From: Naegleria gruberi
Taxonomy: Eukaryota
Strand: one strand, 5' to 3'
NCBI GenBank assembly: GCA_000004985.1
Contig: GG738845.1
Length of the DNA: 64,000 bases
Positions within the stretch are counted from its first letter, which is position 1. The number at the start of each line of letters is the position of its first letter. Positions 4,371 through 59,471 of the stretch are shown in pieces. The notes under the pieces are model-generated. The model had not been told where the DNA came from. It ran no database searches and worked only from the letters and a program-made list of their open reading frames with translations. The translations under genes and the position numbers were made by a program.

Positions 4371-6514
4371 ATGCCAATTTCACTTTTGTATGATTTTGAA
4401 GAAACCTCGGAACAGATTATTATTAAAGTTAATCTTAAAGGAGCTACCAGAAGTAGTCTCTCCACCACTATTTCTGATTGTTATATCAAAGTCAATTGCC
4501 CACCTCATCATTTTTTGGAATTAGATTTGAAGGAGACAATTGTGTTGGATGACTCATCGAGAACACACAAAGTTGAGGGTCACAATGTTGTGTTTGTTTT
4601 GAAAAAGAAGGATAAAAAGGAGTGGGGTTCTGCAATCTTGAAACCAAATGATGAAGTTAGCAAGGAGATGATCGAATCTAGAAGAAAGGAGTCTCTGGAA
4701 AGACTCTCGAAAATGGAGGCAGAAGAAAGAGAGGAAAGAAAAAAACAAAGGACAAAAGAAGAACAGAGACTTTTAGAGCTTCATTGGCAAGAGGAAAAGA
4801 AAAAGAGAGAGGATATTGAAAGAAAGAAACAAGAAGAAAAGGAGCAAGCAGCACTTGAATTGAGTCAACTTAAAGAAAGAGATGAAACATCTTCCCAAAA
4901 ATCTGAAAAATACAGGGTTGCAAATCAAAGACAAGTAACTATTGAAGATATTACTGAGGAGGATATAGCTGTTGATGAAAAGAACTCAAATTATGAACAT
5001 TTTACTGCACCAATCAGACAGACAGAAACATCAACTATTAAGTTATCATTCACACCAAGAGCATTGAGGACTCCTGCAAGGGAGGACAAGGATAGTGAAA
5101 CATTGAAAAAATACGAAATTTGGAGAAGAAAAAACAAACCTGCAGAATTGGAAGAAAATGGTAAGTATTTATTACTCTAAATAAGGTAAAATTTCTAGTT
5201 GTGTGGGTGATTGAAAGAGGAGATAAATTTATGAAAAAGAAAAATTTCAACTCTGCAATTAGTGCCTACACTGAGGCTTTACACATGGAATCGAGTGTCA
5301 TTACATGTTTGCCGAAGAGAGCAGAGTGTTTCTTTGAAAGAAAAGAATATTTGAAGGCTATCGAAGATTGTACCAATTTTTTGAACACTGAATCAAAACA
5401 GAATGCTCAAATAGAAGATAAATTCCTGCTTCAAGCATTAACAACAAGATCGAAATGCTATAAGGAGATTTCAGATCTTAAGAAAGCACTGGAGGATGTG
5501 AAAATAGCATATAGAATTGACTCGAGTATCGAACTACAAAAAATGATAAGAGAGTTAGAAAATACTCTATCAAAAGAGTTGATGGAAGACAAAGATAAGG
5601 CTGATTTGTTGAAAGATCAAGCTGATCAAGAATACTTTGAACAAAGATTTGAAGAGGCCATCAAGCTCTATACTGATGCCATCAATCATAGAGCTCATTT
5701 CTTCAGAGCCTATAGCAACAGATCTGTTTGCTACCTTCAACTGAATAGATACTTTGAGTGCATTCAAGACTGTACATATATTCTTCAAAACATTCATTCC
5801 AAATCGGTTCCTGAGCCCGAAAAAAAGAACGCTGCTTCTTTCATCCTCAAATCATACCTGAGAAGAGGTACATGTCATTTTAAAGTTGGTGACTACAATA
5901 ATTCATATAAGGACTATGAGCAAGCATCAAGAATGGCTCCAGAGGATGAAGAAATTCTTGCCGACTTGGAAAAAGTCAACGAAGAACTTACCTCCAAACT
6001 TCAAGGGGATTGGTTAAAAAATACAGCCAACAACTTTTACTTAAGAGGAGATTTTGCTTCTGCTATTCATTCCTATACATTGGCTGTCAATCTTGACAAG
6101 ACGAATCCAGTTTATTATTCCAACAGAGCTCAGTGTTTCTTTAAAACTGGTGACTTTGTCAGATGTGTAAAGGATTGCAATACAGCCCTCTCCGTGCTAT
6201 CTGAAGATGATGAACTGAAAGTCGATCAAATTCTGGAAGAGGAAAAAAACGTTGAAGCAATGCAAGACTCAAAGAAGGAAAAGGAAGAGTTTCCGACTAA
6301 TCCAAAACTTACTCCTAAATTGCAACTTAAACTCTACCTTAAAAGAGCAGTTGCTTACAAGGAGATGGAAGAATACGAAAGAGCCTTTTTAGATATTCGA
6401 AGAGCTCACCAACTCGAGCCTGAAAATAAGGAAATCAAATCAGAATATGATTCTATTGAAAAATTATATGAGTTAACTAAAAAAGATGAAATCAAAATTG
6501 AGATAAAGGAATAA
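4371..6514 (+). CDS. CS-domain + TPR-repeat protein, DNAAF4/DYX1C1-like (dynein axonemal assembly factor 4-like). Two exons: join(4371..5160, 5199..6514).
   Basis: Exon 1 encodes an N-terminal p23/CS-like beta-sandwich (IKVNLKG...DCYIKVNCPPHHFLELDL...HNVVFVLKKKD) followed by a K/E-rich coiled coil. The track ORF ends at a G|GTAAGTAT donor at 5161. A 38-nt intron ends ...TTCTAG at 5198. Exon 2 continues in frame into TPR repeats (NFNSAISAYTEAL..., NNFYLRGDFASAIHSYTLAV...). CS-N/TPR-C domain order is that of DNAAF4. Confidence 0.6.
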
Positions 6515-6570
6515 ATATTAATTTCTTTCGTGTAAAAATGTTCCTCACAAATTTTGAACATTAAAAAAAA

Positions 6571-9500
6571 ATGAGTAAAATGCTTGCAAAGATTCAAAAA
6601 TTGAAGAAGAGTAGAGCCACTTCTTCAACCAAACAAAACAAACATGAGGAAGAAGAGTATGATAAATCATTTTTCGGATATATGGATGATTCATCATCGG
6701 ATGATGACAATTTTGATCCATCAATTTATGGAGGAAGAGAAGTAGTTGGAAGTTTTGTTGAGAAGGATGGTAGTGATGATGAATTATCGGGACATGTGCA
6801 ATTTTCAACTAACAGTGATGACGATGATGAATATAATCTTACTGTTGGTGACCTTCAAAATGAAGAGGAACAACCAAAGAAGAAAAAGAAGACTACACCT
6901 GTGGTTTCAACACAAAAACCACAACAGGTTATAGAAGAACATAATGATGATAACGATCTGGAAATGAATGATGCAACCGATGACACTCACGAAACCAATG
7001 AAGACCATCAAGAAGAAACCTCAACAACTGCCAAAAAATCAAGTAATCTTGATGAATGGACAGAAGAGGAATTGAAAGAAAACGATTCTACCTCTTCCAC
7101 ATGGAAGAAGATTAAATTATCTGATGAGGATGCCTTTTCATGTGAAGGAATGTACTCTCTTGAAGTATTAGATGAAGATAATGAGGAATACAAGTCAATA
7201 ATGCGAAGTCTTTATGGTGATGACTATGACAAGAAAGATGAAAAGAAGGAAAATCCAACCAGTATTGAAAAAGATACCAGAACAAAGGAGGAAATCAAAA
7301 AGGAACGAAACAAGAAGAAAAGAGAAAGAAAGGCTAAAAAGGCAGAGGAAAAAAAGCTTGCTGAAAATACCACCCAAGAATTACAAACCAAAGTATCTCA
7401 AGAAGAAAAAATTGAAAAGGTAAAAAAGGAAAATGAAACAAAGAAATTAGAGAAGAAAAAACTTGAAACAACAGAACAAAAATTGGTCAAGAATGAACAA
7501 GAAAACAAAGTGCAAGAAGAAACTAAAAAAAAGAGAGAAAAAGCTGGTGATTTGAAAGTTGTAAATGAAAATGCAGATACTGCTCCATTTGAAGAAGTAG
7601 CTTCTAAAATGACTGCTTGGAATTTCAATGATACCATTCAATTACATGAACAAGTTGTTCGTAATTTGTATCGCCTTGGATTTTACAAGCCAACACCAAT
7701 CCAAGAAGAATCAATTCCTAAAGCTATTGGTCAACAAGCTGATATTTTAGCTGCTGCTGAAACTGGTTCAGGAAAGACATTGGCATTTGTTTTACCAATT
7801 ATTGATGAGTTGATGAAATTGAAAGAAAATGAACCTGCTCAACAAGTCAAAGATGATGAATCTAGAACTGTAGATGGAATTTCACTCAATGAAATTGGTG
7901 TTAAAAATAAGAGAAAGAAACTTTTACGCGATGTTAAAAAGGACATGTTCCAACTCAGATCACTTATTCTTTTACCTACAAGAGAATTAGCATTGCAAGT
8001 TTGTTCACATATTGAAGCTGTCATTCGAAACACATCCCTAAAGGTTGTTGGACTAGTTGGTGGACTAAATGAAGAGAAGCAAATCAGAGAAATTCACGTA
8101 CAAAAACCTGATATTATTGTTGCTACACCTGGTAGATACTGGTTTTATATTGATAAGGGTATGTTTGCCTCCAACTCAATTCTTGGCCTCAGATTTTTGG
8201 TGATTGACGAAGCTGATAGAATGGTAGCTGATGCTCACTTTTTCGAACTCCAATCCATTTTGAGATATATTACCATTGAAAGATTCAAAAGAAGTCAACA
8301 AGGAGAATCAAACTCAATCTTGAGAAAATTCATCTCTTCTGCAACTCTTACTTTTATTGATGATAAGTGGAAGAAGCAATTATATGAATTATCACTCCAA
8401 GAACAAGAAAAGAGAGAATCCAATTCAGAAGATTATATCAACCAAAAAGAAGAAGAACAGGTTGAAATACCTCAAGAACAAGATGCTGAGCATAAGAAGA
8501 AAGAAAAAGAAACTAAAACACAAAAGATTATCCAAAAAATTCTTGCCATTTTAGATATGAAAAATCCAGTGATGGTTGACTTGACTACCAGCAATTTATT
8601 AGCCCACACTCTCCAAGAAGCCTTCATACAAAGTACCAGAGAAGATAAGGTTCTCTATCTTTACTATTTCTTGACAATTTATTCTGGTCGTACAGTAGTC
8701 TTTACAAATAATATTAAGGTTGTTAGATTTATTGGTAATATTTTGAAAGAGCTCTTTAATAAGGGACCTAATGCCAAGCAAACAAGTATTACAATTGTTT
8801 CATTACATGGTAAGATGGACCAACAATCTCGTTTTAAGAATTTGGAAAAGTTTAAAAAGGCTGAAAATAGTATCTTGATTACTACCGACGTATTTGCTCG
8901 TGGTATTGATATTCCTGATGTAGAAAATGTTGTACATTTCAATATTCCAATTGATACCAAGACTTATATCCATCGTTGCGGACGTTCTGGAAGAGCAGGC
9001 AAACAAGGATTTAGTTTGGCTATTGTTTCTCCGGAGGAACGTAAATCATTCTATCATATTCTAAGAGATACTCGAGGTGAAGGTAGTGAAATGCCTCCTT
9101 TCCCGATGTCACATCCTGATTTGTTAGAAGTTTTACGTAAGCGTGTAAATTTGGCAATTGAAATTGAAAAATTGGAAGAAAGAAAGGCTGCCAGAACTCA
9201 AGAACAAGATTGGTTTACAAAACAAGCCGCTGCTATGGATATTGATTTAGATGAACGATTTTTCAAGGACTTGAAGAAAGATAAGGATTTGAAACTCAAA
9301 GGATTAGCTCCTGATCAAGAACGTAAGCTTGCAACTATGAAGAAACAACTTGAAGGCTTACTCAAACAAAATGTTTTCATGCAAACAAAGACAAGTATTT
9401 CAGGAACTAATCGTCTATTTACTGTTGGTGATCCAAGAAGTGTTGATCTTATCAGAGCTAGTCTTAGTGGATTGAGAGAAAACAAAGCAAGAGCTGATTT

Positions 9501-9582
9501 AGAAGAAGCCCAAAAGCCTTCCGAAGTTCCAACTAAAAGTCAATCGAAAAAAAGAAAGAGAAATCAAAAAAAGAATAAATAA
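6571..9582 (+). CDS. DEAD-box ATP-dependent RNA helicase with long acidic/Lys-rich N-terminal extension (nucleolar DDX24/Mak5-like)
   Basis: Helicase motifs present: Q motif (F..PTPIQEESIP), motif I AAAETGSGKTLAF, Ia PTRELALQ, TPGR, DEAD (VIDEADRM), SAT, HGKMDQQSRF, ARGIDIP, HRCGRSGRAG. Start codon lies in AAAAAAAAATG context. Subfamily assignment is a guess. Confidence 0.85.
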   Translation: MSKMLAKIQKLKKSRATSSTKQNKHEEEEYDKSFFGYMDDSSSDDDNFDPSIYGGREVVGSFVEKDGSDDELSGHVQFSTNSDDDDEYNLTVGDLQNEEEQPKKKKKTTPVVSTQKPQQVIEEHNDDNDLEMNDATDDTHETNEDHQEETSTTAKKSSNLDEWTEEELKENDSTSSTWKKIKLSDEDAFSCEGMYSLEVLDEDNEEYKSIMRSLYGDDYDKKDEKKENPTSIEKDTRTKEEIKKERNKKKRERKAKKAEEKKLAENTTQELQTKVSQEEKIEKVKKENETKKLEKKKLETTEQKLVKNEQENKVQEETKKKREKAGDLKVVNENADTAPFEEVASKMTAWNFNDTIQLHEQVVRNLYRLGFYKPTPIQEESIPKAIGQQADILAAAETGSGKTLAFVLPIIDELMKLKENEPAQQVKDDESRTVDGISLNEIGVKNKRKKLLRDVKKDMFQLRSLILLPTRELALQVCSHIEAVIRNTSLKVVGLVGGLNEEKQIREIHVQKPDIIVATPGRYWFYIDKGMFASNSILGLRFLVIDEADRMVADAHFFELQSILRYITIERFKRSQQGESNSILRKFISSATLTFIDDKWKKQLYELSLQEQEKRESNSEDYINQKEEEQVEIPQEQDAEHKKKEKETKTQKIIQKILAILDMKNPVMVDLTTSNLLAHTLQEAFIQSTREDKVLYLYYFLTIYSGRTVVFTNNIKVVRFIGNILKELFNKGPNAKQTSITIVSLHGKMDQQSRFKNLEKFKKAENSILITTDVFARGIDIPDVENVVHFNIPIDTKTYIHRCGRSGRAGKQGFSLAIVSPEERKSFYHILRDTRGEGSEMPPFPMSHPDLLEVLRKRVNLAIEIEKLEERKAARTQEQDWFTKQAAAMDIDLDERFFKDLKKDKDLKLKGLAPDQERKLATMKKQLEGLLKQNVFMQTKTSISGTNRLFTVGDPRSVDLIRASLSGLRENKARADLEEAQKPSEVPTKSQSKKRKRNQKKNK

Positions 9583-9583
9583 T

Positions 9584-9865
9584 TTAAATTTGTTTTGAAA
9601 TATAGTACACTATTTGACAATTGTAATCAATTATTTAAATATTCATCTACCTACCATTATTTCCTCTAATAAAAGCGTCTCCGTATGTTCCAGTCTGCAC
9701 TCCATCAACATATTCCTTTGTTTGTTCCAAAGCAACATTCATATATCCATCTAGACAGGTTAAAACTCCTCTATATTCAGCACCAGAATTTAATTTAACA
9801 ATCACTGGTTTTCCGACAATATCATTTTTTAAAAAGGTTGTTGGGTCCAAATTGTTTGCTGACAT
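9584..9865 (-). CDS. LSM6: U6 snRNA-associated Sm-like protein LSm6. Two exons: join(complement 9655..9865, complement 9584..9609).
   Basis: Exon 1 encodes ...PVIVKLNSGAEYRGVLTCLDGYMNVALEQTKEYVDGVQTGTYGDAFIRGNN, matching LSm6 almost residue for residue. The track ORF reads through a G|GTAGGTAG donor. A 45-nt intron (9610..9654) ends CAAATAG. The terminal mini-exon encodes VYYISKQI* (LSm6 ends ...IRGNNVLYIS...). The stop lies 2 nt from the stop of the convergent DEAD-box gene. Confidence 0.8.
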
Positions 9866-9929
9866 TTTTTTTGTTGATAAAATTATTTTTAAACTTTCAA
9901 TTTTTTAATTTTTTTAATATTTACAAGTT

Positions 9930-10970: not shown

Positions 10971-11374
10971 TTTTGTAGAGAATGTTTCTTTGTTGAATTC
11001 TTGTACAACCGAATAATCTAGGTAGTGGGTGATTGTATTTTTTTCATCGTTTTTTTGAATTCAATAATGTGGTGAGTGGTGTTTTTATGTCACCACCCAC
11101 CACATGGTTCAAGTTTGTAGAGGAGAAGCAGGGTGGGTACCTAACTGGTTACAATTTTTTGTAGTGGTTGGTACGTACCTAGGTAATAATTTGTGCACCA
11201 GTAAGGTTTTTTTAATAAGAATCATTGGATATATCTTAGCTCAGGATATCAATTCCAACCCAACTCCCTTAACCAACTACAACTTTGATCCACACTCTAC
11301 GGGGTTGTAGAGCTTGTGATACTTCTTGTCTCTCATGTCTGCACAGATGAACATAATGTCACCACTCAAAAAAA

Positions 11375-14300
11375 ATGATCAAGAAATTGGGCGTAAAAGC
11401 TCAAAAATTTTCTCTCATACTTCACCCTGCATTTAAACACGCAACTGATCAACATAAAACAAAACTTGTTGAAGAATCGGAAGGTCATGTTGTTCATCAT
11501 GTTATTAGTGAAGATTGTCTTGATGGAGAGTCTAAAGTTAATAGTGAAGAATTAATTGTTAGTGATTTGATTGATGAAGATATTGATGAAGATGATAAAA
11601 AAGAGATTGATGAAAATTTACTTCAAAAAGCATTATACTATGCTCTATTAACTTTACATTTACCGATTCATATGGTTCCTGAAAGAATTCAAGATGTTCC
11701 CCTCACACTCTCACAATTACAAGGTGAAGTTTTAAAATTATTTGAACCCAAGTTAACTCTTGAAGAGTTGCAAAAAACTTGGAATGAAATATATATTCAG
11801 AAATCAGATAATGGCTCTATTGATTTAATTGTAGATTTTCTATTGTTGAGAAAGTATATTTTTGAAAACGAACATCAATTACCATATACAACCTCTGATT
11901 TTGTTAGTGTGGAGAAGTATCAGTTTTGGAGACATAACAAGATTAAGGAAATTGACCTCATGTTGGATAGTATTAAAACTGCTAGAAAGAAGGAATTCAA
12001 TTGCAAGTTGGAATTTGAATTTGATAATGTTATCCTAAACAATTCTGAGTCTCTTGTTAAGAAAACTGAGTGCGATTTGATGTATCATTTGGATACAACT
12101 GATCCTGAGAGTTCCATTAAAATTAACAATGATACCAAAACTAAAACTGTATATGAATCAAAACCTGTAGAAACCAAGAAGAAGGATGCTGCTTTTAAAC
12201 CAATCTTTAAAGAACTTGTTAAATTGTAAGTGTTACCTCTAATGATGTGTTCTAACTTCTTCAAATATGTAGATCTCTAGCAAATAGAGATCAAGAGGTA
12301 AAATTTTCTATCATCTTGTCAAAATATGCAGGTTTGAAAAAGAAGGAAATTGGTCACGTTATTATTCCAGTTACCAGTTTAATTGAAAAACTTTTCCCAA
12401 AAACAAATTGGGGAAACATTGATCAACCGATTCGAGCTGATTTTCCAATTGTTTTTAATAATTCAACTATTGGTGATATTCAACTCAAAATTACAAGAGG
12501 AAATTATCAATACTTCCCAGCAAATCAAAATAATTGGACTACATATGTTTCCAAGAGGCTTGACTTTATCAAGAATAATTTAAATACATTTGATATTCCA
12601 GATGTTTACAAGATCAAAAAAGTTCTATTAAGAAGAGCATTTAATTCGCCAAAGACAGACCTTAACTTAGTGACTTATGTTCAAAAATGGATTCTTGGAG
12701 AGATTGACCTCTTATTTGGTATGTCTACCCATAATGCAGAAATTAGTTTGTTAGATGTACTTTCAAGAAATATTCGTTTTTTAATTTCATTTGCTGATCA
12801 ATTTTCAAAAAGTTATCAAACTGCTACAAAAATAATTAGTGATAATATTAAACAAACCAACAAGATCAACCAAATTATGGACAAGACTGAAAAGAAAGTT
12901 GTTGATCTCTTAATGCATTTCAAGGAGAGATTCCCAAGAAACAAACCAGATGGTGCTTTAGAAAATGTTGTTAAACTATATGACACCATTATTTCTGTAC
13001 ACAAAAAACATTCATTTGAAGAATTTTTAGATATTCTTAAAGACCTTTTGAAAAAGTCACTCGAAAATGATTATTTGCTTATTAAGAAGCAACAATTAGA
13101 GGTTTTCAAAACAGAAGAGTTGAATGCCAAGGTGTTAATTGGAATGATTCCAGGGATTGTATACAAATTGGATAGGTAAGTTGACATGTCATTTAAAATT
13201 TCAAAATATTTTCAAAAACCTTAATTGACCAAACAACTTAACATCACTTTCAAAGACTCTATGATTATTCTGATACACTCCCACAGGATGTTAAATATGA
13301 AAGCATGAACATGATCTATTATGAATTGTTCAAGAAGGATTTCCAACAAGTTGCTCAATCAGGAGGGTTCTCTGGTTATCAGATGTTGCATTTTTGCACT
13401 AAGATTAAAGATTTAGCTGAAGTGATTGGAAACTCCAACGATTTGAGTCAAAAAAAATCCGAATTGATTGACATCGCTGAAGTTTCTAAAGGCTATGAAG
13501 AAAAATTCATTGAAGAATTAGCGGCTAAACTCGGTGATTGCGCAGATCAATCTATTAAGATTGACAATTGGGTACCAGTTAATCAAGACGTGAAACACTC
13601 AACAAGTGTTGTTGATTTTTACACTGCAGCTAACGAGATTTGGAACTATGTTTCTGAATTGGAGTTTTTCAATGAACATTTATTGCAAATGTTCACAGAA
13701 ATGTTGGCAAAGGTCACTCTCGATTATGCAAATAAGGTTAAAAATATTGCAGTACAAATTATTACTAGAAATACAAAAGAGAAATCAAGTACATCCCCAA
13801 CAACTGAAAAGACCAAAAAATCCAAAACAATCAACCTCTTTAGTAGAAATGAAGTTAAAAACGCGGAGCAAGAGAGTGATTTAATTTATTCTGAGATTGA
13901 ATTGACCTCAGATTTTTTAATAATGCTTAATAATATTAGCGTTTCGAAGCAAGAAATGGAAGAAATTATCGATAGTATTATTGAAAAACAAAAGGACTTG
14001 AAAGATAGTGAAGAAGTCACTAGACAAGTAGAAAGAAACGAGGAAGAAGATTTGGACTTGGAAAATGAAGAAGATTTGAAAAAGACCTCAGATATGATTG
14101 GTGAGCATCAAATGAGTGCTCTTGAAAAATCCAGAAAAAATATTGACCTTATTATTGAATCATTGATTGCTATCATCTCCTCCAGTTTCAGAGTTCCAAT
14201 TAGAAGTACACTACAAAATATTTTTAACAAAACTAAAACCTTGGTTGAAAAAAGTTCACCATCGAACAGACCCCTCTCCAAAGATACTACTCTCAAAATT

Positions 14301-16280
14301 GTGCAATCAGAAATTGATTCAATTTTGAGTAGTGAATTACTTGAGTCTATTCTTACACCTGCCTTTACAATTCTATCCGAAAGTTGCTATGATCAATTAT
14401 TTAAATTAATCTTGGAAAATATTTTGGATATTACAAACTCAGAAATGATTAATTCATTTATTATTCCAACTGATAATTATGATATTGAATCTGATAAGGA
14501 CAAATTCCTCACTGTTGAACAATTATTTGTACTTGAAAGCGTTCACACAACCTTTGGAATTTATCTTTGTGGTAATGATGATGATCCTGATACTGGATTG
14601 AATGAACAAGTATTTGAGTCCAAATCACGTCTCCTACTCAGATTAATTTCCCTCTATCAATGCACAACACCCAAGTTGATTAACATTTACCAAAAGTACA
14701 CCAAGTATCCTAATTTGAACTTTTCAAACATTTTGAAAAAGCATCACATATTACTTTTACTCAAATCTAAGGGTGATAAAGAAGCTCTATCATTCTACAA
14801 AATTCATCAAAAAGAGGCAGAACATCAACGTATTATTCAAGTCTTCAATTTGAAACCAGTTGATGGAGCAGGAGATGAAGATGAAAGCAATGACAGGTAT
14901 GAAGAGTTGTTGGTGACTGTGAGTGGTATTTATGAATTAAGTCCGTATGATGTTCATGTTACTGAACTCAGACTTTTACTAGAATCTAAATGTTCTAGAA
15001 AGACTAAAGAATTTTTATTGAGAGATGTCATTAATGCCAAATTGAGTAAACATTTACTCTCCACAAAGGGTGTTCAATTTTCAATCAAGGGTGATGAAAA
15101 GAGAGTTTACATTCTAAATTTTACTGATTCAGAATTGAGAACCAAATTCCTAAATGTATTTTACCAACAATTGAAGAATATTGGTAATGAACAACCTCAG
15201 CTTCAAGAATTGAAATCCCCAACAACAAGTGGAAGTTCTGTTAAAATCCTTGACTCTAATTTGTTTGATCAAGCTGCAGATGCCTTAAAACTCAAGTTTA
15301 AAATCAAAAACTCATCATGTAAACTTTTAAAAAGAATTATTGCTCAAGCTGCCTACAAGGTCGATAATACCAAAGTTTTTGCGGATGGTGAAGTATTATT
15401 ATTCAATTATGGTCTTTGTTTCCATTGTGGTTCAGATGGTGTTAAAGGAACTTTCTCTCTAAAACTCAACTTTTCAATTGTAAAACAAATTGAAGGAAAG
15501 AAGAGAAAGGACAATTCCATGAGAATCAAAATTGATCTGCAAGGAGGCTATTCTCTGTCTTTTTATAATGTTGAATTTTTTGAGAATTGTCTCTCTGATA
15601 TTATCAATGCATTTGAACAATGGTCCAAGGATTCAACAATTACACCTCTACCAAAATCAGATGATAAGAATTATTTCATTTCAAAATTCAAATTGAAATG
15701 TATTGGAGAGAGTGATGAATGCTTAGATAGAAAGTTGAGCTGTGGATCAGCACTTACAGAAAATGGAACATTGTTTATTGGAAACTATCATTGTTGTTAT
15801 GAATCCAATTCTCTCCTTCCAAATAACGGAGACATACAAAAGGAAGAGCAAATCTTAATCCCTGTTGCATTTATCAAGGATATTGAGAAGTATGTTCATT
15901 CAAAATTATTGGCTCTCCGTTTATTGAGTGGCCATATTGTTTGTTTCATGTTCCATGATGAAAAGAGTTTAGAAATCGCCTTCCAAAGAATCACTGTCAA
16001 GGTACAATGTATCACTAAGCCAAAAATATCCATATTTGGATCTTCAAACAGTGAAAATAATCTTTATATTTCAAATATTTTAAAAAATGAAAAGATAGAT
16101 TTGGATTCTTGCGATCAGAGAATATTGAATAGTGCTATATTGACAAAACAAGCTCAAGAAGCACCAATCCAAACTTTAGGTAATTTGGGAAGCGGTGTCA
16201 AACAAGCAAGTCAAAGTGGTGGAGTTTTCCATTATTTTACCAATATTGGAAAGAATATTTTCGGAAATAAGAAGAAATAA
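11375..16280 (+). CDS. Large multi-exon gene of unknown function; possibly C2-like plus MUN/helical domains (speculative). Exon A 11375..12225. Exon B starts at 12273 (or 12288) and ends at 13175. Third ORF 13305..16280 is either the last exon or a separate gene.
   Basis: Track ORFs end at 12229 and 13179, each exactly at a G|TAAGT donor (GTAAGTG at 12226, GTAAGTT at 13176). The first intron (47 nt, TTCTAAC branch-like, acceptor TAG at 12272) restores the frame into ORF B. The second junction cannot be joined in frame using the obvious CCCACAG acceptor at 13286. Alternatives are an acceptor at 13303 (128-nt intron), or a short terminal exon (R-MLNMKA*) with 13305..16280 as an independent gene. 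Confidence 0.45.
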
Positions 16281-16663: not shown

Positions 16664-18722
16664 ATGATTAACTTTGTGTATCAGTTGATTATAATATTAC
16701 TCCTGCCAGGTATTCTAATCAATAGTACTTGTTGTATTTCTGGAATACCACAAGAAGAAGATACACCAATTAAAATACTAAAGGATGGAGAAATAATTCC
16801 ATTCAATAGAACCATGTTAGTTCTCATCGATCAAAGTAGCACTCCAAGAGAAGAAACTCTAGATATTGTGAGTGATGGTATTTCGTTAACATTCTCAATT
16901 CTCTCTGTAATTGGATCCTTAGCTGTGTTTGGAATGTTTTTCTTTGAACATGCTTGGGTGTTTGGTAGAGAAAAGGAACAGAAAGCAAATTATAGACGTT
17001 CTCTCAAAAGAAATACCATCAAGGATCTGGATATTCTGCAACAACACCATGTTGAATATATGAAAAAGAAGAGGCAAGTAATTTCTCAGAAAAAGAGAGA
17101 GTTTGTGCGGAGAATGATGTTATCATTGATGGTGTCAGATGTAATTTGTTCATTGAGTAGGATTATGTTTGTTGTTTGGTGGTGGATTTGTACTCAAGCA
17201 GCTCCTAATGAAATGTTCAATCATTTTACAGGTCCAGTTCAAAATTTTGGAACCAATTCATCTCAAATTATTACGAATGGATCCATTTCTTTGACTAGTT
17301 TTATTTCACCTCCTCTTTCGAAAGTCATTACAATTCATTTCAATACCAATGGAAAGGAAAAGAATAATGGGAAGGGAAAGGATAAAAAACCAGTTATTGA
17401 TAAAAAGAATGGAGGAAGTAAGAATGGTTCCATAATTGAGTATTTGTCTGATCCGTTTGGAGAAACAAACAAGTTCAACAAAAAGCAAATGGCCTTAATT
17501 GAACCTCCATCTTTCTATTCAGTGTTCAGGATTGATGGGAATGATTCCATGAATGGGACAATGTTTTATTCCTATTTTGAAATGAAAACAGCACCTCAAT
17601 TGTTTTTAGGATTTCTTGCCAATGTTAATTATGCATCATGCCTGTCAACTGCTTCCTGGGTTGCAATAGTGGCCTTTTCTGTTTTAGCAACAACGAGGCA
17701 AGTCAGTTGGGATGACGAAATGCAAGAGGAAAGTGATGACGAATCAAAGAAGGTGAAAATATTATGTGTTGAAACTGTTTTTCATTCATTTTCATGGGGA
17801 ATAGCCTTTTTTTCGTTTTTCATTATTTTTCTTCTTAGAGTAGTTTCTCACACAACACCAACAATAGATAAGACAATAATTAACATCATTACCAGTATAC
17901 TCTATATTATGTGGGCCCTGTTTTTTACCCTGGTATGTTATTAATTTCATTCAAATTAACAAAAAACAGATAATAACTATTCTTATTATAATATTAGGTT
18001 GTATTTGGAGAAAAATAGGAATACACTTCAACAAGTCTCAATTGATATTCCCAAAATTGGAGACAAGAAAAAGACAGCGTTCAGTAATACTAAAATTAAG
18101 CATGCTCCTTCTCCCATTCGCTTTTTGTGGAATTTTTGAAGTCATATTTTGGTATTACAATGCTGTCACAACTCTAACTCAACAAGATGATGTTCTCTTT
18201 GTTGTGATATTTTACAACTTTCTTTACAATGTTATCGTTCCATTGAAAGGCTTTCTTTTGGCTATTGCCTTCTTATTGGGTTCACCAGAAGTGAGATCAT
18301 GTCTCAAATGCTGTTGTTTTTGTAATAGTTTTGCTACTAGTGATTATAGCTCTAGCACAGAATCCCTTCTAGATGGTCATATTGAGGAAGCAAATAGCAT
18401 CACATCTGTTTTTGAAAATGTTAGGACAAGACTCCGAACGCCCAGCTCAGAATATGCAGGATTATACTATTCCAACTCGGCAACCACGCCAAGAACACCA
18501 CAGTTCCCAATTAGTGATTCAGAAGAGCCTAAATCCTCAGCTCACTACACAACACTGGACAGAGTGAAAGCAACCTATGCCACTATCTCAACAGAATCCA
18601 TTGAGGGAACTCTTATCACTTTTGGCCGTCTCTACACTGGTGCATCAACAAGAACCAATCAACAACAAGTGCTCCAAACTAATAGCTCTGAAATATCTGA
18701 AGACATTCATATTAATATTTGA
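16664..18722 (+). CDS. Seven-transmembrane receptor-like (GPCR-like) glycoprotein. Two exons: join(16664..17932, 18018..18722).
   Basis: Signal peptide, then 7 predicted hydrophobic helices. A long N-glycosylation-rich loop lies between helices 2 and 3. C-terminal tail is Cys-cluster and Ser/Thr-rich. Track ORF 1 ends at a CTG|GTATGT donor (phase 0). The 85-nt intron ends AAAATAG at 18017 and continues in frame into ORF 2 (helices 6-7). Confidence 0.6.
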
Positions 18723-21371: not shown

Positions 21372-21527
21372 ATGTCTGCTGAAGGTCATCACGGTCCATA
21401 CAATACTCGTTTGTTCTCTTGGAGAATGATTGCGATCGCCGCCGGTTTCTCCATGATTCCTTTGTTGTTCTCAAAGCCTGCTCCTCAACCAAAGACTGAA
21501 ACTTTCACTCCTCCAAGTAGGTATTAA
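21372..21527 (+). CDS. Candidate small ORF (51 aa) encoding a single-pass membrane micro-protein, not in the ORF track
   Basis: In the 600-bp gap before PRP16: CCTCAAAAATG start context like neighbouring genes. Product MSAEGHHGPYNTRLFSWRMIAIAAGFSMIPLLFSKPAPQPKTETFTPPSRY* has one clear hydrophobic helix. Too short to pass the 60-aa track filter. Confidence 0.35.
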   Translation: MSAEGHHGPYNTRLFSWRMIAIAAGFSMIPLLFSKPAPQPKTETFTPPSRY

Positions 21528-21684
21528 TAATTTAAATTATTCTTGATTTTCTTTTATTCAGAACATTAAATTTCAGACACCATGGGACTTTAATAAAAAA
21601 ACTACTTTTAAATTCTAACAAAATTCATTATTTGAAAGTTTCATATTATTGCTTGCCGATGATTATTGCTACACCTTCAAAAAA

Positions 21685-45773: not shown

Positions 45774-46069
45774 TTTTTTACAATTTAAATAGAATAAATA
45801 ATAATTAATTGTAAATTTCTCAAGATTATATCATCACTTCCAATAAGAGTGTGTTTAATCAAAATACTACCAATTAATTTTATTGTTGTAATAATGGCAA
45901 TAACAATTTTTTCTTCAATTTACGCCATATTGCCCCTTCCTTCTTACTTTGGATAAGAAAAAATTGTGTGATAAATGTGGGCAACACAAGTCATCAATTA
46001 ATTGACAAAACAAATACATCCACCCTATCATCAAACGGAATTTGGAGAAAAAGAAATATTTTCTCTCCG

Positions 46070-47149: not shown

Positions 47150-47515
47150 TTAATTATCTTTTAGATATTCTTCATATTGTTGAGGGGTAATGCATTTTTT
47201 GAATGAAAATGCATGAATTCCTTTCATTTCTTCTTGGAGTTTAGTATTGACAAGTCTTTGCCTTTCCAATAATTTCTTTCCCTCAAATTCAGGGCTTACA
47301 ATAAATACAGAAAATGCTAATTTGCAAGTAATTTAATAAAATTTAATTAAATTTAATAAATACCGCTTCCACACCCTCCACTATTATTTGATTAATGATG
47401 ATAATTAATTTATTTTGAACCTTAAAACATACCTTTGATCTTCCACTTGAACAAAGGTTGCTCCGATTCTTTCTTTTAATAATTCTTCAAGTTTTGATGC
47501 AGTTAATACACTCAT
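47150..47515 (-). CDS. BOLA2: BolA2-like protein (Fe-S cluster assembly factor partner of Grx3/4). Three exons: join(complement 47433..47515, complement 47364..47380, complement 47150..47316). Absent from the ORF track.
   Basis: Spliced product is [88 protein letters not shown] (88 aa). It is collinear with human BOLA2 (...VEVEDTT..CSCSFRVLVVSAKFEGKPLLQRHRLVNACLAEELPHIHAFEQKTLTPDQW). Donors AG|GTATGTTTT and G|GTATTTATT. Introns of 52 and 47 nt. The middle exon is only 17 nt. Start in TTAAAAAATG context. Confidence 0.8.
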
Positions 47516-47693: not shown

Positions 47694-48404
47694 ATGGGTG
47701 CTTTTCTTTCTCTTTTCAAAGGTGCAAATTTGACCCAATCAAGAATTTTAATATTAGGTTTGGATAATAGTGGTAAAACCAGTTTACTGATAAAGATGGG
47801 CCTGGTGACTAGTAGTAGTGATAAGAAATCTTCAAAATCCCAAACTGATTTGGATGATGATTTAACGGTGACGCCAACAATTGGCTACAATGTAAAGGAA
47901 TTTTCGTACAAAGGAGTTGTTTTTAATTGTTGGGATTTAGGAGGACAAAAGAACATTAGAAGTCTTTGGAGTAAGTGCTTCAAAATAGTTTCCGTTTTGA
48001 ATTTAATTTATTATTATATTTTCATCATCTGACAATTTAATTTATTTTACTTAATGACATTAATAGAACATTATTATAAAGGATCAAATGGTATTATATA
48101 TATTGTAGATAGCGCAGATCATAATAGATTAAAAGAATCTAAACAAGAATTATTTCATCTATTGGAAGATCCTGATCTGAAGAATGTTCCGGTTTTAATT
48201 TTTGCTAACAAGAGAGACAAGGAAGGTGCTATTTCTGCAACTGAATTGATTGCAAAATTTGAATTGGAAGACTCGTTACAGTTTGTTAATGGAAAACATG
48301 ATTGGTATGTTGAAAGTGTGAGCACAGTCACAGGTGAAGGTATTGAAAGTGGATTGAAATGGCTGGTCTCTAAACTGAAACAAAAACCATCAAAAGATAA
48401 CTAG
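47694..48404 (+). CDS. Arf/Arl-family small GTPase. Two exons: join(47694..47970, 48067..48404).
   Basis: MGAFLSLFKG (N-myristoylation Gly2). P-loop GLDNSGKTS. WDLGGQ. After splicing (TGGA|GTAAGTG ... TAATAG|AA) the sequence continues ...SLWKHYYKGSNGIIYIVDSADHNRL, then NKRD and a C-terminal helix. Carries a roughly 25-aa insertion (MGLVTSSSDKKSSKSQTDLDDDLTV) before the interswitch. The 96-nt intron is the longest clear one in the window. Confidence 0.8.
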
Positions 48405-50282: not shown

Positions 50283-50287
50283 ACCAA

Positions 50288-50360
50288 TCGCCCCACGTGG
50301 GGCTCGAACCCACGACCGTTGGATTAAAAGTCCAACGCTCTACCGACTGAGCTAGCGGGG
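50288..50360 (-). tRNA. tRNA-Lys (anticodon UUU), 73 nt
   Basis: Minus-strand sequence GCCCCGCTAGCTCAGTCGGTAGAGCGTTGGACTTTTAATCCAACGGTCGTGGGTTCGAGCCCCACGTGGGGCG folds as a canonical cloverleaf with a 7-bp acceptor stem (one G-U). A box TAGCTCAGTCGG. Anticodon loop CTTTTAA. B box GGTTCGAGCCC. No CCA encoded. A T6 run follows 5 nt downstream (Pol III terminator). Confidence 0.9.
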
Positions 50361-50447
50361 CTGCTCGTAAACTAATTATAATAATCCGTATTATATTGGA
50401 ACACAATAAATTTTTCGCTAGTGGTTTTTACATCAATCTCTGGTTAA

Positions 50448-50495: not shown

Positions 50496-50713
50496 CAGCA
50501 AACTGTAATGACTTTACAATTTTTTGCATTTCCGAAGAGAGGAAGTATCAATAAAAAACACTTTGACATTTTATTCTGGAAATGAAACTCTAATATTGGA
50601 AGTAAATTACAATAAATTTGAATGATGATGACGTGTTAATGTGCTTGTTGGGAAACATTGTTTCTCATGTGTTGCTGTACCAGTTTGCAAGCAACACAAT
50701 AAAAATTATCACT

Positions 50714-53797: not shown

Positions 53798-54168
53798 TGT
53801 TCGTTTGTTGTTGTGTAGCAGCAAGCTGCTAGCTGATTTTGAACCTGCGGGTATCCGATTTATCATTGTATTTAATTAGAATTATTCATAATTATTGTGA
53901 GTGTAATCATCAAGAAAATCCACCTATTATTTAATTGAAAACTGTTATAATACAACTGTACTGCTATTTTTTAATAAAATGAATTTTTATATCCAATGGA
54001 TAACACGTGTCTATTCTTACCAATGACATGGTTTATATTGAAGAACAAGAGATAGGATACTAGAGACGACTACAAACTAATTGTATAGTGTTTACTGAGG
54101 AAAGTCATAATAACCTTTGATTCATCGAGCAGTGATTGTATGAATCATGTCTTGCGCGCCAAAAAAAA

Positions 54169-57100
54169 ATGGCTTCCTCTTCTCAGCCAAGCATATTGTC
54201 ATTAGTAGAGAGGCTTTGTCGAAAACTTCTGTCCGGTCAGCAACAGTATAATTCTTATTCGGAAACACATGGTTGGTCATATAGTAAATTCTCAACTCAA
54301 ATTGTTGTTAACCAAGATAATTCCGATAGAGTTAGTGAAAAACTTGTAAAGAACACCAAAAGGACTTGTTTTTCTATCCTGATAGATAGGAATGAAAATG
54401 TAGGTTATATTGTTCTGTTAAAGGATTTATCATATTTAGTATATTCCCCCATTCGATTTTTCTGAATCATCAGATCAATTTCCATCTAAACTTTGTGAAT
54501 TGGATTATAGAATAGATACCCTGGTATGCACACTCAAATTGAGAGGTCAAGAGTCGACAGCCCAAAAAATTGAGCGTTTATTTCAATCCCTAAAACTATT
54601 GGATATGAAAATGAGCTCATTTCTTCTTCTTTTATTTAATGATTTAATTTCTCAAAACATTGACCAAAATTATGAGGAAAATAATTTAATTTTTGATATT
54701 TCATCCATTCAATCAGTTAGTGGAGAAAGTAAAAATTCAATGATATTGGAGGATTTGAATTTAAGTAGCCAATCTGATTTTTTCCCCAATGTACTTGATT
54801 GTGCCAGCAATACTCAATCTAATACTAGTTTATATTCAATGCAACCACTTTCAAAGATTGAAGGCTTCTTTGAAAATTTTGAATATTCTGACATATCAAG
54901 TCTAAAGAGACCACTAAGTGATTTTCAATCAGTTTTAAAATTGAAACCAGAAAAAAAGAAGCGATCTATCTATTTCACAGAACAAAGCAGTGACAAACTT
55001 TTTGAACACAAACATTATTTTGAGAGACTTTGTTTTGGATTGAATCCTCAACAAATACAAGAGTCTGATCTTGTAAATTTTGGCATATTAGCCCTACAAG
55101 GTATTTCATCGGATGTATTTATTTGGGATTCTGTAAAGTTTTGCTTTAAAATTCAACCAGTGAGGATAAAGACATTATCATTTCTAGGACTACGACAATC
55201 TTTGCAGGTAGTGGCCAACATGGGATCACTATTCAAACGTTTAGAAATAATAACAGAATATACTCAACTAGATTTAACCTATACTGGAAAATGCTTGCAG
55301 AGTTGTGGACAAGGTCTTTCTCATGTCATGAATTGGTACAAGTCATGTATACTAGATATTCCAAATATTCTAACTACTCTAGTCTCAGACTATTCAGGAT
55401 GTGATTGTAGAATTACAATTCTTAACTTGATACATCATATTACTCCTTTAAAGCAACGTTTAGAAGTGTTGTCTGAAATATTTGAATGTGACATACAAGA
55501 GAAAAATGCAAATGATGAATTCTCCATACTTCTTACTGATAATATACAGAGTAAGAATCTGTATATATCTAGTAGAGTTAAACAACTGCCCAAGGGAGCA
55601 AAGCTCATCAATTTAATGTATGAAAAAATTCAATCTATTGAAAATTCAAATAGGCCAGATTCTACGAATATTCTTCTTATATTACTCTACTATACTTTCC
55701 AGCCATACCTATATTGGATAAATAAGTGGATATTTTTTGGTGAGCTTGCTGATGATTTTAGTAGAGAGTTTTTTATTCAAAAGAATACCTCAAATCATTG
55801 TACTGAAATGTGGAATGCTCACATTGTGGATGCCCAACAAATACCTTCATGCATTTTAAAATGGGGAAATGACATATTTACTACTGGCAATACCGTAGGA
55901 ATAATCAAGTCTTGTAGACCAGATCACTACATTCTCAAAGATTTCATTTCCTCAACAATTAAATCTATCACAATTCTTTTCACTGAACAAGATTTGAAAA
56001 TTTATGAGCTTCAATGTGAAAAATTACAAAAATTACAACACAAAGACGCAACCTTAGAGATGAAAACCCAATTACAACAATTGGAAGTAAAAATTAGAGC
56101 TCAAGAGGAAAGACTGAAATTTGGTGAAGAATTATTGGATAGATTTCAAGAAGAGGAGAACAAATTACGAGATAAATTAAAGAAAGAGATCTTGGAAGAA
56201 TACAGAAAGAAAATGAATGTAGATATTTTTGAGGAGAGTCTGAACCTCAATAAGACACTGAATGAAATCACTCCCAAGCAACAGGATGAAGATTCTCTGA
56301 TGAGTGAAGCTCCTTCTCAATTGATTATTGAAGATTTAGACAAGCTGATTGATGATGAAGATGCAACCTTATTAATGAGAGTAGAATCTTTAAGTGTTTC
56401 CAACTTGTTGGAGAGTCAAAGGCCATTCATAGAGTTACCAATTGAGGTAGCAACTATGAGGAGTATTTTTTCAGTATTATTCCAGCAAAAACACATGATC
56501 GACAGCATTTTTGTGAAGATGTTATTTCACGACTATAGATTGAGCGAGTATTTTAGTATTATTAATAATTTTTTCCTTTTTCGAGCTGGTGACTTTCATG
56601 ATTGTTTTGTAAATATTTTGCATGAAGGCATGAAAAAGGGTATTCTGTATTCTGATATTTATATTGTAAATAGAGCTATGCAAGAGGCATTAAAGATTAC
56701 AGGCCATGCAGAGAGAGATGAAAGTATTGTATCCAAATTGAACTTCCGTATTGATGAATCTAAGGTTATTAATTTTTTAGATTACAACTCTGTTACAAGT
56801 CTCGATCATTTGTTATTACATTATGACATTGAGTTTCCTGTCTCGTTAATATTAACACCAATCATGATGGGAAAATATGCATCAATTCATGCACTCTTAC
56901 TTAAAATCAAACGGATCGATTGCTCACTGTTGGATATTTGGACTATTTTCAAGGTAAAGACTAGAATAACCAATCAAAGACTAAAGTATCTCCAACTATT
57001 TAGACAAGAGATTCAGCATTTTATAACGGTATTCAAAACGTTCATCTTTGTAGAGGTTATTGAATCATCCTTTTCTGATTTTGTTAAAGAATTACTTCAC

Positions 57101-57433
57101 CAAAAAGATAAGGATTTGAATATGGAAAGATTGTTATCAATTCATCAAAAGTTTGTTGATTCATTAATCAAACAGTGTCTACTCTCTACATCAGCTAAAC
57201 CTATTATGGATATTATTTTGAAAATGTTTGGATTAATTTTAAAGTTCAAAATTCAAATTGAAAATGTGGACATAACAGATTTGCCAGATACCCATTATGC
57301 AATAATTACACAAACTAGAAAAGAATTTATAGATTGTGCCCTATTTTTGGATTCATTAATGGACAGAGTAGCTCTGCAATCAACAACATCCAAGTTTGGA
57401 AAATTCAGAATGAATTATAAATTTACATACTAA
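54169..57433 (+). CDS. Gamma-tubulin complex component (GCP/Spc97-Spc98 family, GRIP motifs). Two exons: join(54169..54399, 54440..57433).
   Basis: Track ORF 1 reads through AAT|GTAGGTTAT (phase 0 donor at 54400). A 40-nt intron ends ATATTTAG at 54439 and joins in frame to ORF 2. GRIP1-like region, coiled-coil insert, and C-terminal GRIP2-like region (FRAGDFHDCFVNIL..., YDIEFPVSLILTPIMMGKYASIHALLLKIKRIDCSLLDIW). Start in CCAAAAAAAAATG context. Confidence 0.65.
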
Positions 57434-57438
57434 TTTAT

Positions 57439-57867
57439 TTACACAAATACTAAAACCAATAATGAAATTACAAATAAAATTGCAGACATGCAAATAATGT
57501 TCGAATCATTACACAAATCATCAGCACAACAATATAAATTTCTCAATTTTTTACAAGTAGAACTATCTGTGGCCCCATAAATATATTTCACAGTACCATC
57601 AATTACATCTTGCTGAGAACATCCATTATATCCACTCCTACATTTAGCAGCAATTTTTGAACAATAATTGTCAGTATAATTATAAGTGACAACCGTCAAA
57701 CTAGTCATGTTATATCCATCACTAACTCCAGTATAACATTGTTGTGCTCCTTCACATTCGGTGGTTAAATTTGTCAACACACAAACCACAAAAGTAATTA
57801 ATAATATCAGTATAATATTTTGGATTTGTTTTCTAGTGATGGATAATAGTTTCATTTTTTTTAACAT
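57439..57867 (-). CDS. Small secreted/GPI-anchored Cys-rich protein with Ly6/uPAR (LU, CD59-like three-finger) signature
   Basis: Signal peptide (MKLLSITRKQIQNIILILLITFVVCVLT). About 90-aa mature domain with 9-10 Cys ending in the LU hallmark ...LYCCADDLCNDSN (compare CD59 YYCCKKDLCNFN). Then a short hydrophobic C-terminus (MSAILFVISLLVLVFV) typical of a GPI-attachment signal. N-glycosylation sites present. Alternative start at the second ATG (57855, AAAAAAAATG). Confidence 0.55.
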   Translation of the reverse strand: MLKKMKLLSITRKQIQNIILILLITFVVCVLTNLTTECEGAQQCYTGVSDGYNMTSLTVVTYNYTDNYCSKIAAKCRSGYNGCSQQDVIDGTVKYIYGATDSSTCKKLRNLYCCADDLCNDSNIICMSAILFVISLLVLVFV

Positions 57868-57969
57868 GTTTCAATTCACCTTTCATTCTTTTGTCTATGG
57901 AAGCGGAAACATTAGTGAGATATAAAGTCAATACTGATAAATATTGGTTAGAAAGCAAGAAGAAAAAAA

Positions 57970-59471
57970 ATGCACCTTCCCAGAGAATCAACATTTAAAA
58001 GGTCATTTCTAGTGAGTGTTCGGAATTTACTCTTCCAATCAAAGTTTAGATCATTTCTCCTACTGCTATGGTTATTGTTCTTTATTTATTGTAGTTATTA
58101 TTATTTCTTATTGTCTTCTATACAGGGATCGGAGAAGGCAGCGAGAATAAATACAATGCACCATGATGATCAACAAGGCGCTGGTACCACCAATAATATT
58201 CAGAATGATCTGAAGGGCAGCAATCAAAAACCTACTGGTGCTGTTGTGGAGCCATCATCACCTACACCTATCGTTCGTGTAATCAAAAAACCAATTATTA
58301 ATCTGGTAAAAGAGGAGAGGAAGAAAATTGATAATTTGGAAGATTTTAAAGAGAAGGGTGAACAGGAAACAGTTTCAAATTTCATCATTCCAATTATAAT
58401 ATTTACCTACAAACGTGCGGAATATTTGAAAGAGACTATTGATACTGTTTTAAAGTATGTGGTTAATAATTTAAAAATTTAGTGATTAATTGCTGAATAA
58501 GGTATATGCCATCTTCTGGATTTCATATTTACGTTTCTCAGGATGGAGATGATGAGAGTGTTAAAAAGGTTGTGGATAGTTATGGAAATACCATTAAGAA
58601 GCATTTCCAAAGAGAGAGAAATGTCATTATTCCTGATAAAATCTCCAATGTTGTGGCATACTACTCAATTGCACAACATTACAAATATGGAATCAATAAG
58701 GTTTTTGAATCGGATAAAACTTATGACAGAATAATTATATTGGAAGAGGATTTAAAAGTTTCTCATGACTTTTTCGATTACTTTTCAACCATGTCAAGAT
58801 TACTTGATCGAGATACTTCATTATTCTGTGTTTCTGCTTGGAATGATAATGGATTGGAGGAATTTGCACAAAATCCTTCATCATTTTACAGATCTGATTT
58901 TTTTCCAGGTCTTGGTTGGATGATGAAAAGAAAATTGTGGGAGGAAGATTTTGAAGCCAAATGGCCACTCGGATTTTGGGATGATTGGATCAGAGAAGGT
59001 CCGAACAGAAAGGGCAGAGCTTGTATAAGGCCAGAAATTTCCAGAACATTTACATTTGGATTCAAAGGTGGAGCCAGCTCTAACCAGTTTTCAAATTATT
59101 TGAGTAAAATCAAATTGAATACCGGAACAGTTGATTGGAATAATTTTGATATTAATTCTCTCGTGAAGAGCAAGTATGATGAGGAATTGATTGATCAAGT
59201 CAAATCAGCAACTCCAATAACAATACACGATCTAAATGATGCCACCAGAGAGAATACTAAAATAAGAATTGAGTACAAGAGTACAGAGGAGTATTTAAAT
59301 GTAGCCAAGGTACTTGGAATTATGGCTGACATTAAGGCAGGTGTGCCAAGAGGTGCTTACTTGGGTATTGTTACAGTTAAACTGAAACGTGGAAATGTAT
59401 TGTTCATTACTCCTCCAACTTTTTCACCACAAACATACACTAATCTTCCTCCTTTCAAACTTACTCAATAA
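57970..59471 (+). CDS. MGAT1: Alpha-1,3-mannosyl-glycoprotein 2-beta-N-acetylglucosaminyltransferase (GnT-I / MGAT1). Two exons: join(57970..58454, 58502..59471).
   Basis: Type-II topology with an N-terminal signal anchor (FLLLLWLLFFIYCSYYYFLL). Catalytic domain collinear with animal GnT-I: IIPIIIFTYKRAEYL, TVLK|YMPSSGFHIYVSQDGDDE across the splice, EDD (ILEEDLKVSHDFFDYF), CVSAWNDNG, FFPGLGWMMKR, FWDDWIR, RACIRPEISRT, KAGVPRGAYLGIV. Donor AA|GTATGTGG, 47-nt intron, acceptor AATAAG at 58501. Confidence 0.85.

Follow-up and report, generated by a model that had tools for sequence, protein, structure and literature searches.

Several long open reading frames (ORFs) in the 64-kb stretch of DNA analysed here (hereafter the window) stop exactly at a TAA that is also the middle of a G-TAA-GT sequence, which raises the question of whether these stops are true gene ends or the 5' splice sites of short introns beyond which the proteins continue. 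An earlier note on this DNA had favoured the second answer and had counted at least 15 introns, 14 of them as coordinate pairs and one, near 13176, left open. This count is borne out, and the open site can now be delimited as 13176-13255. We are almost certain that these intervals represent spliceosomal introns of the conventional U2 type (GT-AG), and that the genes concerned are nuclear, code for proteins, and belong to a Naegleria-like heterolobosean amoeboflagellate; the introns would be removed by splicing at the RNA level, as predicted from the sequence.

Introns of the window and the genes that carry them

All 14 listed intervals were read, and the open codons on each side were counted after in-frame excision. 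Ten of them join 88-623 upstream codons to 40-997 downstream codons in frame, and 9610-9654, 47381-47432, and 47317-47363 scored weakly in this test because their genes are small. Thirteen of the coordinate pairs were found to be exact, while the remaining one, 17933-18017, is wrong at its 3' end, where it finishes in ATA|GG without an AG, and it is replaced here by 17933-17969. The intron-bearing genes, about 11 of 29 in the window, and their introns are as follows.

4371-6514, plus strand: coding sequence of a CS-domain and TPR gene, with the CS and TPR domains flanking the junction
5161-5198, plus strand: intron of the CS/TPR gene, 38 nt, GTAAGT...TAG, phase 1, joins 293 and 437 codons, GC 21%
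9865-9584, minus strand: coding sequence of LSm6, from alignment to human LSm6
9610-9654, minus strand: last intron of LSm6, 45 nt, GTAGGT...TAG, phase 1
11375-16280, plus strand: coding sequence of a conserved hypothetical protein of 1592 amino acids (gene B)
12226-12272, plus strand: first intron of gene B, 47 nt, GTAAGT...CTAAC...TAG, phase 2, joins 289 and 301 codons
13176-13255, plus strand: intron of gene B, 80 nt, GTAAGT...CTTAAC...AAG, phase 2
16664-18722, plus strand: coding sequence of a multi-pass membrane protein
17933-17969, plus strand: intron of the membrane-protein gene, 37 nt, GTATGT...TTAAC...CAG, phase 0, joins 448 and 250 codons, GC 19%
21079-18753, minus strand: coding sequence of NOC2, with two introns
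20797-20840, minus strand: first intron of NOC2, 44 nt, GTATGT...TTAAC...TAG, phase 2, joins 90 and 182 codons
20203-20250, minus strand: second intron of NOC2, 48 nt, GTAAGT...TTAAC...TAG, phase 2, joins 197 and 482 codons
31328-33728, plus strand: coding sequence of a coiled-coil protein with a weak IQ match and two introns
32567-32606, plus strand: intron of the coiled-coil gene, 40 nt, GTATGT...TTAAC...TAG, phase 0, joins 417 and 223 codons
33275-33319, plus strand: intron of the coiled-coil gene, 45 nt, GTAAGT...TAG, phase 2, joins 222 and 135 codons; ORF end inside G-TAA-GT
45773-43794, minus strand: coding sequence of Beclin/Atg6, Pfam APG6 BARA
43918-43959, minus strand: last intron of Beclin/Atg6, 42 nt, GTAAGT...CAG, phase 2, joins 623 and 40 codons
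47515-47150, minus strand: coding sequence of a BolA2-like gene, from alignment to Arabidopsis BolA2
47381-47432, minus strand: first intron of the BolA2-like gene, 52 nt, GTATGT...TAG, phase 2
47364-47380, minus strand: microexon of the BolA2-like gene, 17 nt, coding for most of the conserved SGGCGS motif
47317-47363, minus strand: second intron of the BolA2-like gene, 47 nt, GTATTT...TAG, phase 1
47694-48404, plus strand: coding sequence of an Arf-like GTPase, Pfam Arf
47971-48066, plus strand: intron of the Arf-like gene, 96 nt, GTAAGT...TAG, phase 1, joins 96 and 111 codons
54169-57433, plus strand: coding sequence of a gamma-tubulin complex protein (GCP)
54400-54439, plus strand: intron of the GCP gene, 40 nt, GTAGGT...TAG, phase 0, joins 88 and 997 codons
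57970-59471, plus strand: coding sequence of GnT-I, Pfam GNT-I
58455-58501, plus strand: intron of the GnT-I gene, 47 nt, GTATGT...AAG, phase 2, joins 167 and 322 codons

In the newly delimited intron 13176-13255, the CTTAAC box lies 14 nt upstream of the acceptor, and excision fuses two frames of 591 and 1007 codons. The BolA2-like and Arf-like genes, which carry three introns between them, had not been named before; the 17-nt microexon of the former, flanked by introns of 52 and 47 nt, is required for both the reading frame and the BolA2 motif. As for the names proposed earlier, NOC2, Beclin, LSm6, GnT-I, and GCP are backed by Pfam or PDB matches, while "DNAAF4-like" derives solely from the CS and TPR domain architecture, and "IQ protein" goes back to a sub-threshold match (E = 0.035). 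For "7TM receptor" no family support was found.

Splice signals and composition

The 15 introns measure 37, 38, 40, 40, 42, 44, 45, 45, 47, 47, 47, 48, 52, 80, and 96 nt (median 45 nt). A range of 38-52 nt had been proposed for nearly all of them, which is close to what was found, since 13 lie at 37-52 nt and the other two at 80 and 96 nt. Counting the corrected 17933-17969, every intron has GT at its 5' end and AG at its 3' end. The donors comprise GTAAGT (seven), GTATGT (five), GTAGGT (two), and GTATTT (one, at 47363), the first three being the forms that had been listed and together covering 14 of the 15, and a G precedes the donor in eight. TAG, which had been described as the overwhelming acceptor, is used in 11 introns, and CAG and AAG are used in two each. 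Moreover, the introns are AT-rich. Their GC content is 21.5%, compared with 33% in the whole window, and 14 of them fall within the lowest 10% of coding 45-mers. Their lengths leave a remainder of zero, one, and two after division by three in five, four, and six cases, respectively, so that no bias towards multiples of three is seen.

A branch motif resembling TTAAC or CTAAC, another element of the earlier note, appears to be real and is enriched near the 3' end, but it conforms only in part to the earlier description. An exact [CT]TAAC is present in 6 of the 15 introns, its A lying 10-17 nt from the 3' end (null expectation 1.3, P = 6e-4), and the looser YTRAY at 6-30 nt from the 3' end occurs in 12 (null expectation 6.6, P = 0.004), the other three having no match. 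With regard to phase, three introns are in phase 0, four in phase 1, and eight in phase 2. The excess of phase 2 may be a detection bias, given that the sample is small and that phase 2 introns with a GTAAGT donor are the most readily noticed.

GTA[A/T/G]GT occurs at 71 sites on the two strands of the window and is not over-represented overall. In a bridging test, every hexamer with at least eight occurrences was scored for excisions of 30-100 nt, ending in AG, that link two ORFs of at least 80 codons. GTAAGT came out top of all hexamers, bridging ORFs at 6 of its 21 sites, and GTATGT did so at 4 of 37; for pooled GTA[A/T/G]GT the figure is 11 of 71 (binomial P = 1.4e-11), the background being 0.8%. 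If retained, each of the introns brings the upstream frame to a stop 1-114 nt beyond the donor, and excision restores an open reading frame at all 15. In agreement with what had been noticed, 5 of the 28 long TAA-ending ORFs end at a TAA within G-TAA-GT, where 0.19 would be expected (P = 1.3e-6). Since a stop is met so soon in a retained intron, five times as the TAA inside GTAAGT itself, an ORF map of the window shows false gene ends.

According to the mechanism proposed here, the strong 5' splice site G|GTA(A/T/G)GT would pair with the U1 and U6 small nuclear RNAs, and a YTRAC/YTRAY box, mostly TTAAC, with its A about 10-17 nt before the 3' end, would serve as the branch site. The acceptor would be YAG, mostly TAG, and at times AAG. 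The short introns, placed between long exons, may be recognised as units, a process known as "intron definition".

Homology across the junctions

Homology spans 12 of the 15 splice junctions, which supports the earlier reading that apparent ORF ends are 5' splice sites and that the true proteins are longer. The LSm6 product aligns to human LSm6 over FIRGNNV|YYISKQ with no gap, and the BolA2-like product aligns equally gap-free to Arabidopsis BolA2 over VEDQ|SGGCGS|AFSVF, by which both of its introns and the microexon are validated. The Pfam Arf domain runs unbroken over SLW|K|HYY at 47971-48066, as does the GNT-I domain over the 58455-58501 junction, and the APG6 BARA domain needs the post-intron exon of Beclin in order to extend to position 177 of 179 of its profile. 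For GCP, the BLASTP alignment is contiguous over the 54400-54439 junction.

In addition to protein homology, five introns (those at 58455, 20203, 20797, 12226, and 54400) occupy the same codon and phase as introns of other heteroloboseans. The introns of three genes of Naegleria lovaniensis, the gene models of which were built with RNA-sequencing guidance (PMC6125883), were mapped exactly from protein and locus. In GnT-I, the codon and phase of 58455-58501 match a 90-nt N. lovaniensis intron. In NOC2, 20203-20250 is identical in codon, phase, and exon flanks (aggatc|...|aaacaa) to a 75-nt N. lovaniensis intron, and 20797-20840, at a junction where the protein sequence is variable, interrupts a Gly codon in phase 2, like a 101-nt N. 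lovaniensis intron (NG|IT versus SG|TI). In gene B, the fused model of which is covered to 100% by a N. lovaniensis protein of 1683 amino acids (P0124), 12226-12272 has counterparts of the same codon and phase in N. lovaniensis (93 nt, L004 8930-9022) and in a Logan relative (about 78 nt, L006). Finally, the GCP intron 54400-54439 matches in codon and phase 0 two introns, one of 79 nt in GCA_041937235.1 (L013) and one of 49 nt in a Logan relative (L014).

Sequence comparison indicates that introns have also been gained or lost among close relatives. The gene B intron 13176-13255 is without counterpart in N. lovaniensis and in the Logan relative, both of which have KLDRLYDFS, aligning gap-free to the spliced KLDR|LYDYS. 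Conversely, the N. lovaniensis intron L004 12441-12579 (139 nt, near amino acid 1449) is without counterpart in the window, and a relative from a JGI metagenome (L005 781-3027) carries an intronless NOC2 that is contiguous over both window junctions.

For three of the proteins no orthologue was retrieved. A tblastn comparison of all gene models with the fetched N. lovaniensis, JGI, and Logan loci gave no orthologue of the membrane, CS/TPR, or IQ-like proteins. A metagenome scan with the membrane protein yielded no match, and one with the CS/TPR protein yielded only unrelated TPR matches at 21-24% identity. A chimeric query composed of three poorly conserved N-terminal regions returned NOC2 matches only, and none for its CS/TPR and GCP parts, because low-complexity words filled the candidate list.

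Weighing of alternative explanations

Among the alternatives, the one that survives best concerns a single boundary, namely that the membrane-protein intron starting at 17933 ends not at 17969 but at 18017 or at the AAG at 18035 (103 nt). We regard this as unlikely, though it deserves a hearing: the 103-nt GT...AAG version is also in frame, with 228 codons downstream, the 48 nt that the 37-nt model keeps are AT-rich, and no homologue is at hand to decide. On the other hand, position 18017 has no AG, and the TAG adjacent to it would shift the frame, whereas the 37-nt version has TTAAC 10 nt from its CAG and fits the 37-52 nt class. Furthermore, the 16 residues retained by it (IITILIIILGCIWRKI) read as a continued membrane helix followed by basic residues.

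A broader alternative takes the in-frame stops as true gene ends, with closely packed genes on the same strand and a merely coincidental GT...AG between them. Packing of this kind would suit a compact genome, in which stop-to-ATG spacers on one strand go down to 56-65 nt (6514 to 6571, and 37844 to 37910), and at 5161-5198 the downstream ORF does have an ATG 11 codons past the proposed acceptor; four junctions are, besides, without homology support. What makes separate genes very improbable is that contiguous homology bridges 12 junctions and that coincidence would have to produce the donor hexamer enrichment of P ~1e-11. Even at the junctions that homology does not support, the downstream ORFs are open for 29-53 codons before their first ATG in three of four cases, and the CS and TPR domains on either side of 5161-5198 form a known single-protein architecture (DNAAF4/DYX1C1).

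The possibility that the interruptions arose as errors of assembly or sequencing, or as small insertions into pseudogenes, gains some colour from the apparent origin of the window in an environmental or otherwise unannotated assembly, the sole exact protein match having come from a metagenome contig of ENA, but it is close to negligible, as two introns are identical in that independently assembled contig, canonical splice signals are present at all introns, and five sites hold introns of other length and sequence in other species. Equally implausible is a removal or bypass other than by the spliceosome (ciliate-style DNA elimination, translational bypassing, or programmed frameshifting), which has no specific support and was weighed on account of the very short AT-rich interruptions known from ciliates, since the standard code gives long ORFs throughout, the bounds are GT...AG with a U1-complementary donor instead of TA...TA, the lengths are 37-96 nt, heterolobosean relatives carry ordinary introns at the same sites, and a gene for the spliceosomal LSm6 lies in the window itself.

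Some observations do weigh against spliceosomal introns as the explanation of every interval. The evidence for the window comes from its DNA, from which splicing is deduced. The branch site is derived statistically from a set of 15 sequences, three of which lack a YTRAY box in the expected range. Two AAG acceptors and one GTATTT donor are weaker than consensus, though all three are backed by homology. Lastly, 5161-5198, 17933-17969, 32567-32606, and 33275-33319 are argued for by joins of 135-448 codons, by their signals, and by low GC; they are without homology support because no orthologue could be retrieved.

Comparison with known introns

In Naegleria lovaniensis the median intron is 80 bp long and 47% of the genes have introns (PMC6125883), while mean intron lengths have been reported as 126-144 bp for N. 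fowleri and 203 bp for N. gruberi (PMC8296547). The spliceosomal introns of the window share GT-AG bounds, GTAAGT-type donors, and mostly TAG acceptors with these Naegleria introns, and the intron-containing share of genes, about 11 of 29, is similar to the N. lovaniensis value. All five mapped N. lovaniensis introns have TTGAC/TTAAC-like boxes near the 3' end, similar to those seen in the window, and four of the five share position and phase with window introns. The main difference lies in length, the window median of 45 nt being below the N. lovaniensis median of 80 bp and the means of 126-203 bp in N. fowleri and N. gruberi. It is also seen in orthologous pairs, in which the window introns have about half the length of their N. 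lovaniensis counterparts; the lengths in the window and in N. lovaniensis are 47 and 90 nt in GnT-I, 44 and 101 as well as 48 and 75 nt in NOC2, and 47 and 93 nt in gene B.

The introns had nonetheless been called "ultra-short", which overstates the case. Minimal introns of about 40-50 nt are ordinary in many eukaryotes, with modes of about 45-50 nt in Caenorhabditis elegans and Schizosaccharomyces pombe, and the window median of 45 nt is close to this usual minimal-intron size. Moreover, the 49-nt intron of the Logan relative at the GCP site means that short introns are not unique to the window organism. Like the minimal introns of C. elegans and S. pombe, those of the window form a narrow peak at 40-50 nt, have a strong 5' splice site, are AT-rich, carry a putative branch site near the 3' end, and are presumably recognised across the intron. 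Unlike in C. elegans, a representative of an unrelated lineage, there are far fewer introns per gene. Truly tiny introns are those of Paramecium, at about 25 nt, of Stentor, at 15-16 nt, and of the Bigelowiella nucleomorph, at 18-21 nt. With these the window introns have in common that they are short and AT-rich and that retention gives early stops, but they are 2-3 times longer and have a full extended donor, a recognisable candidate branch box, and a standard code.

It may be, although we would stop short of favouring the idea, that introns throughout the genome of the source lineage have contracted to a narrow length class near 45 nt, while a 17-nt microexon and possibly a 9-nt first exon are still spliced. 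If this were true, the introns would have about half the length of their N. lovaniensis orthologues, would be the shortest reported for Heterolobosea, and would offer a compact natural system for studies of minimal-intron recognition in Discoba. The possible lineage-wide shortening is the only mildly novel aspect of the introns, which leave the knowledge of splicing unchanged and are useful for annotation. Bacterial-style ORF calling breaks up at least 11 of the about 29 genes in the window, and the training of a splice-aware gene finder for this organism can draw on GTA(A/T/G)GT donors, intron lengths of 37-52 nt, putative branch boxes resembling TTAAC, and YAG acceptors. As well, the window and N. 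lovaniensis together provide clean, if few, data on how introns have shortened and on their gain or loss in heteroloboseans.

Gene content and source of the window

The window has a GC content of 33% and about one gene per 2.2 kb, with long ORFs on both strands under the standard genetic code, the longest of 1,496 codons. Both features resemble those of the N. gruberi genome, which has been reported as gene-dense with 33% GC (PMC8296547). Pfam matches show that the window encodes DNA topoisomerase I, DEAD-box and DEAH-box helicases, an enzyme of the GMP reductase/IMPDH family, NOC2, DNAAF5, Beclin/Atg6, a NIF phosphatase, an Arf-like GTPase, IRE1, GCP, GnT-I, and myosin I. The spliceosomal LSm6 shares the window with the DEAH-box helicase, which has HA2 and OB-fold domains.

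Over its full length, the spliced GnT-I model shows 60% identity to the N. lovaniensis protein; the identity is 67% to a partial model from N. gruberi and 51% to the proteins of both Willaertia magna and Acrasis kona. For NOC2 the identity to N. lovaniensis is 71-75%, and for the 1592-amino-acid hypothetical protein it is 52%. Protein identity (52-75% to N. lovaniensis) places the source among the heteroloboseans, close to or inside Naegleria; because the proteins are merely 52-75% identical, the window organism differs from N. lovaniensis in species or genus.

A 7-kb metagenome contig in ENA (ERZ929261, run ERR1078381) is 99.886% identical to positions 54016-61032 of the window, from which it follows that the same organism or a very close strain was present in that public sample. 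The two sequences show eight differences, seven of them in intergenic spacers, and both introns in this region (54400-54439 and 58455-58501) are identical. The gene calls on the contig are bacterial-style fragments, with GnT-I called as an ORF of 321 amino acids. Exact-protein look-ups of two single-exon genes of the window matched no record, and literature searches on the accessions of the sample turned up no paper.

Additional candidates and other observations

Two further intervals were recognised as candidate introns.

4175-4223, minus strand: candidate intron of the topoisomerase I gene, 49 nt, GTAAGT...TAG, phase 0
21517-21561, plus strand: weak candidate intron, 45 nt, GTAGGT...CAG, GC 18%, proposed from signals and GC only

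The topoisomerase I gene probably starts with a 9-nt first exon, ATG GTC GAC (4232-4224), followed by the 49-nt intron. The TAG acceptor of this predicted intron is the codon that opens the long topoisomerase I ORF, and the arrangement is the sole in-frame solution that gives a start codon, adding 36 charged residues before the first ATG inside the ORF. At the weaker candidate 21517-21561 ends an ORF of about 50 codons that starts at 21372 on the plus strand (MSAEGHHGPYNTRLFSWRMIAIAAGFSMIPLLF...) and has one hydrophobic segment. It sits in the spacer that separates the divergent NOC2 and DEAH helicase genes and has no family match.

Other putative hidden introns were rejected, namely one at 8159, which encodes the DEAD-box motif VIDEADRM, one at 51088, inside an unbroken Ribonuc_2-5A domain, one at 46748, which would disrupt an intact NIF domain, and a 53-nt candidate at 43749, the downstream exon of which would lie wholly antisense within the last Beclin exon. 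The remaining in-frame consensus donors in long ORFs were rejected for a coding-like GC content of 29-43%.

The ORF of the NIF-phosphatase gene is open for 64 codons (45878-46069, plus strand) ahead of its first ATG, and no consensus donor was found upstream; there may be a 5' exon that went unrecognised here, or a splice site outside the consensus. An Rfam scan of the window matched a tRNA as the sole hit, with no rRNA gene and no U1 gene. This tRNA-Lys (UUU), at 50289-50361 on the minus strand, is without intron and is the sole Rfam or ARAGORN match in the window.

Stop usage is strongly skewed to TAA, which ends 28 of the 32 ORFs of at least 150 codons, five of these 28 stops being splice donors. 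Finally, two pairs of genes converge closely. The stops of the DEAD-box helicase (9580-9582) and LSm6 (9584-9586) are 1 nt apart, and those of a C2-domain gene and Beclin (43771-43796) are 20 nt apart, so that the 3' untranslated regions must overlap.

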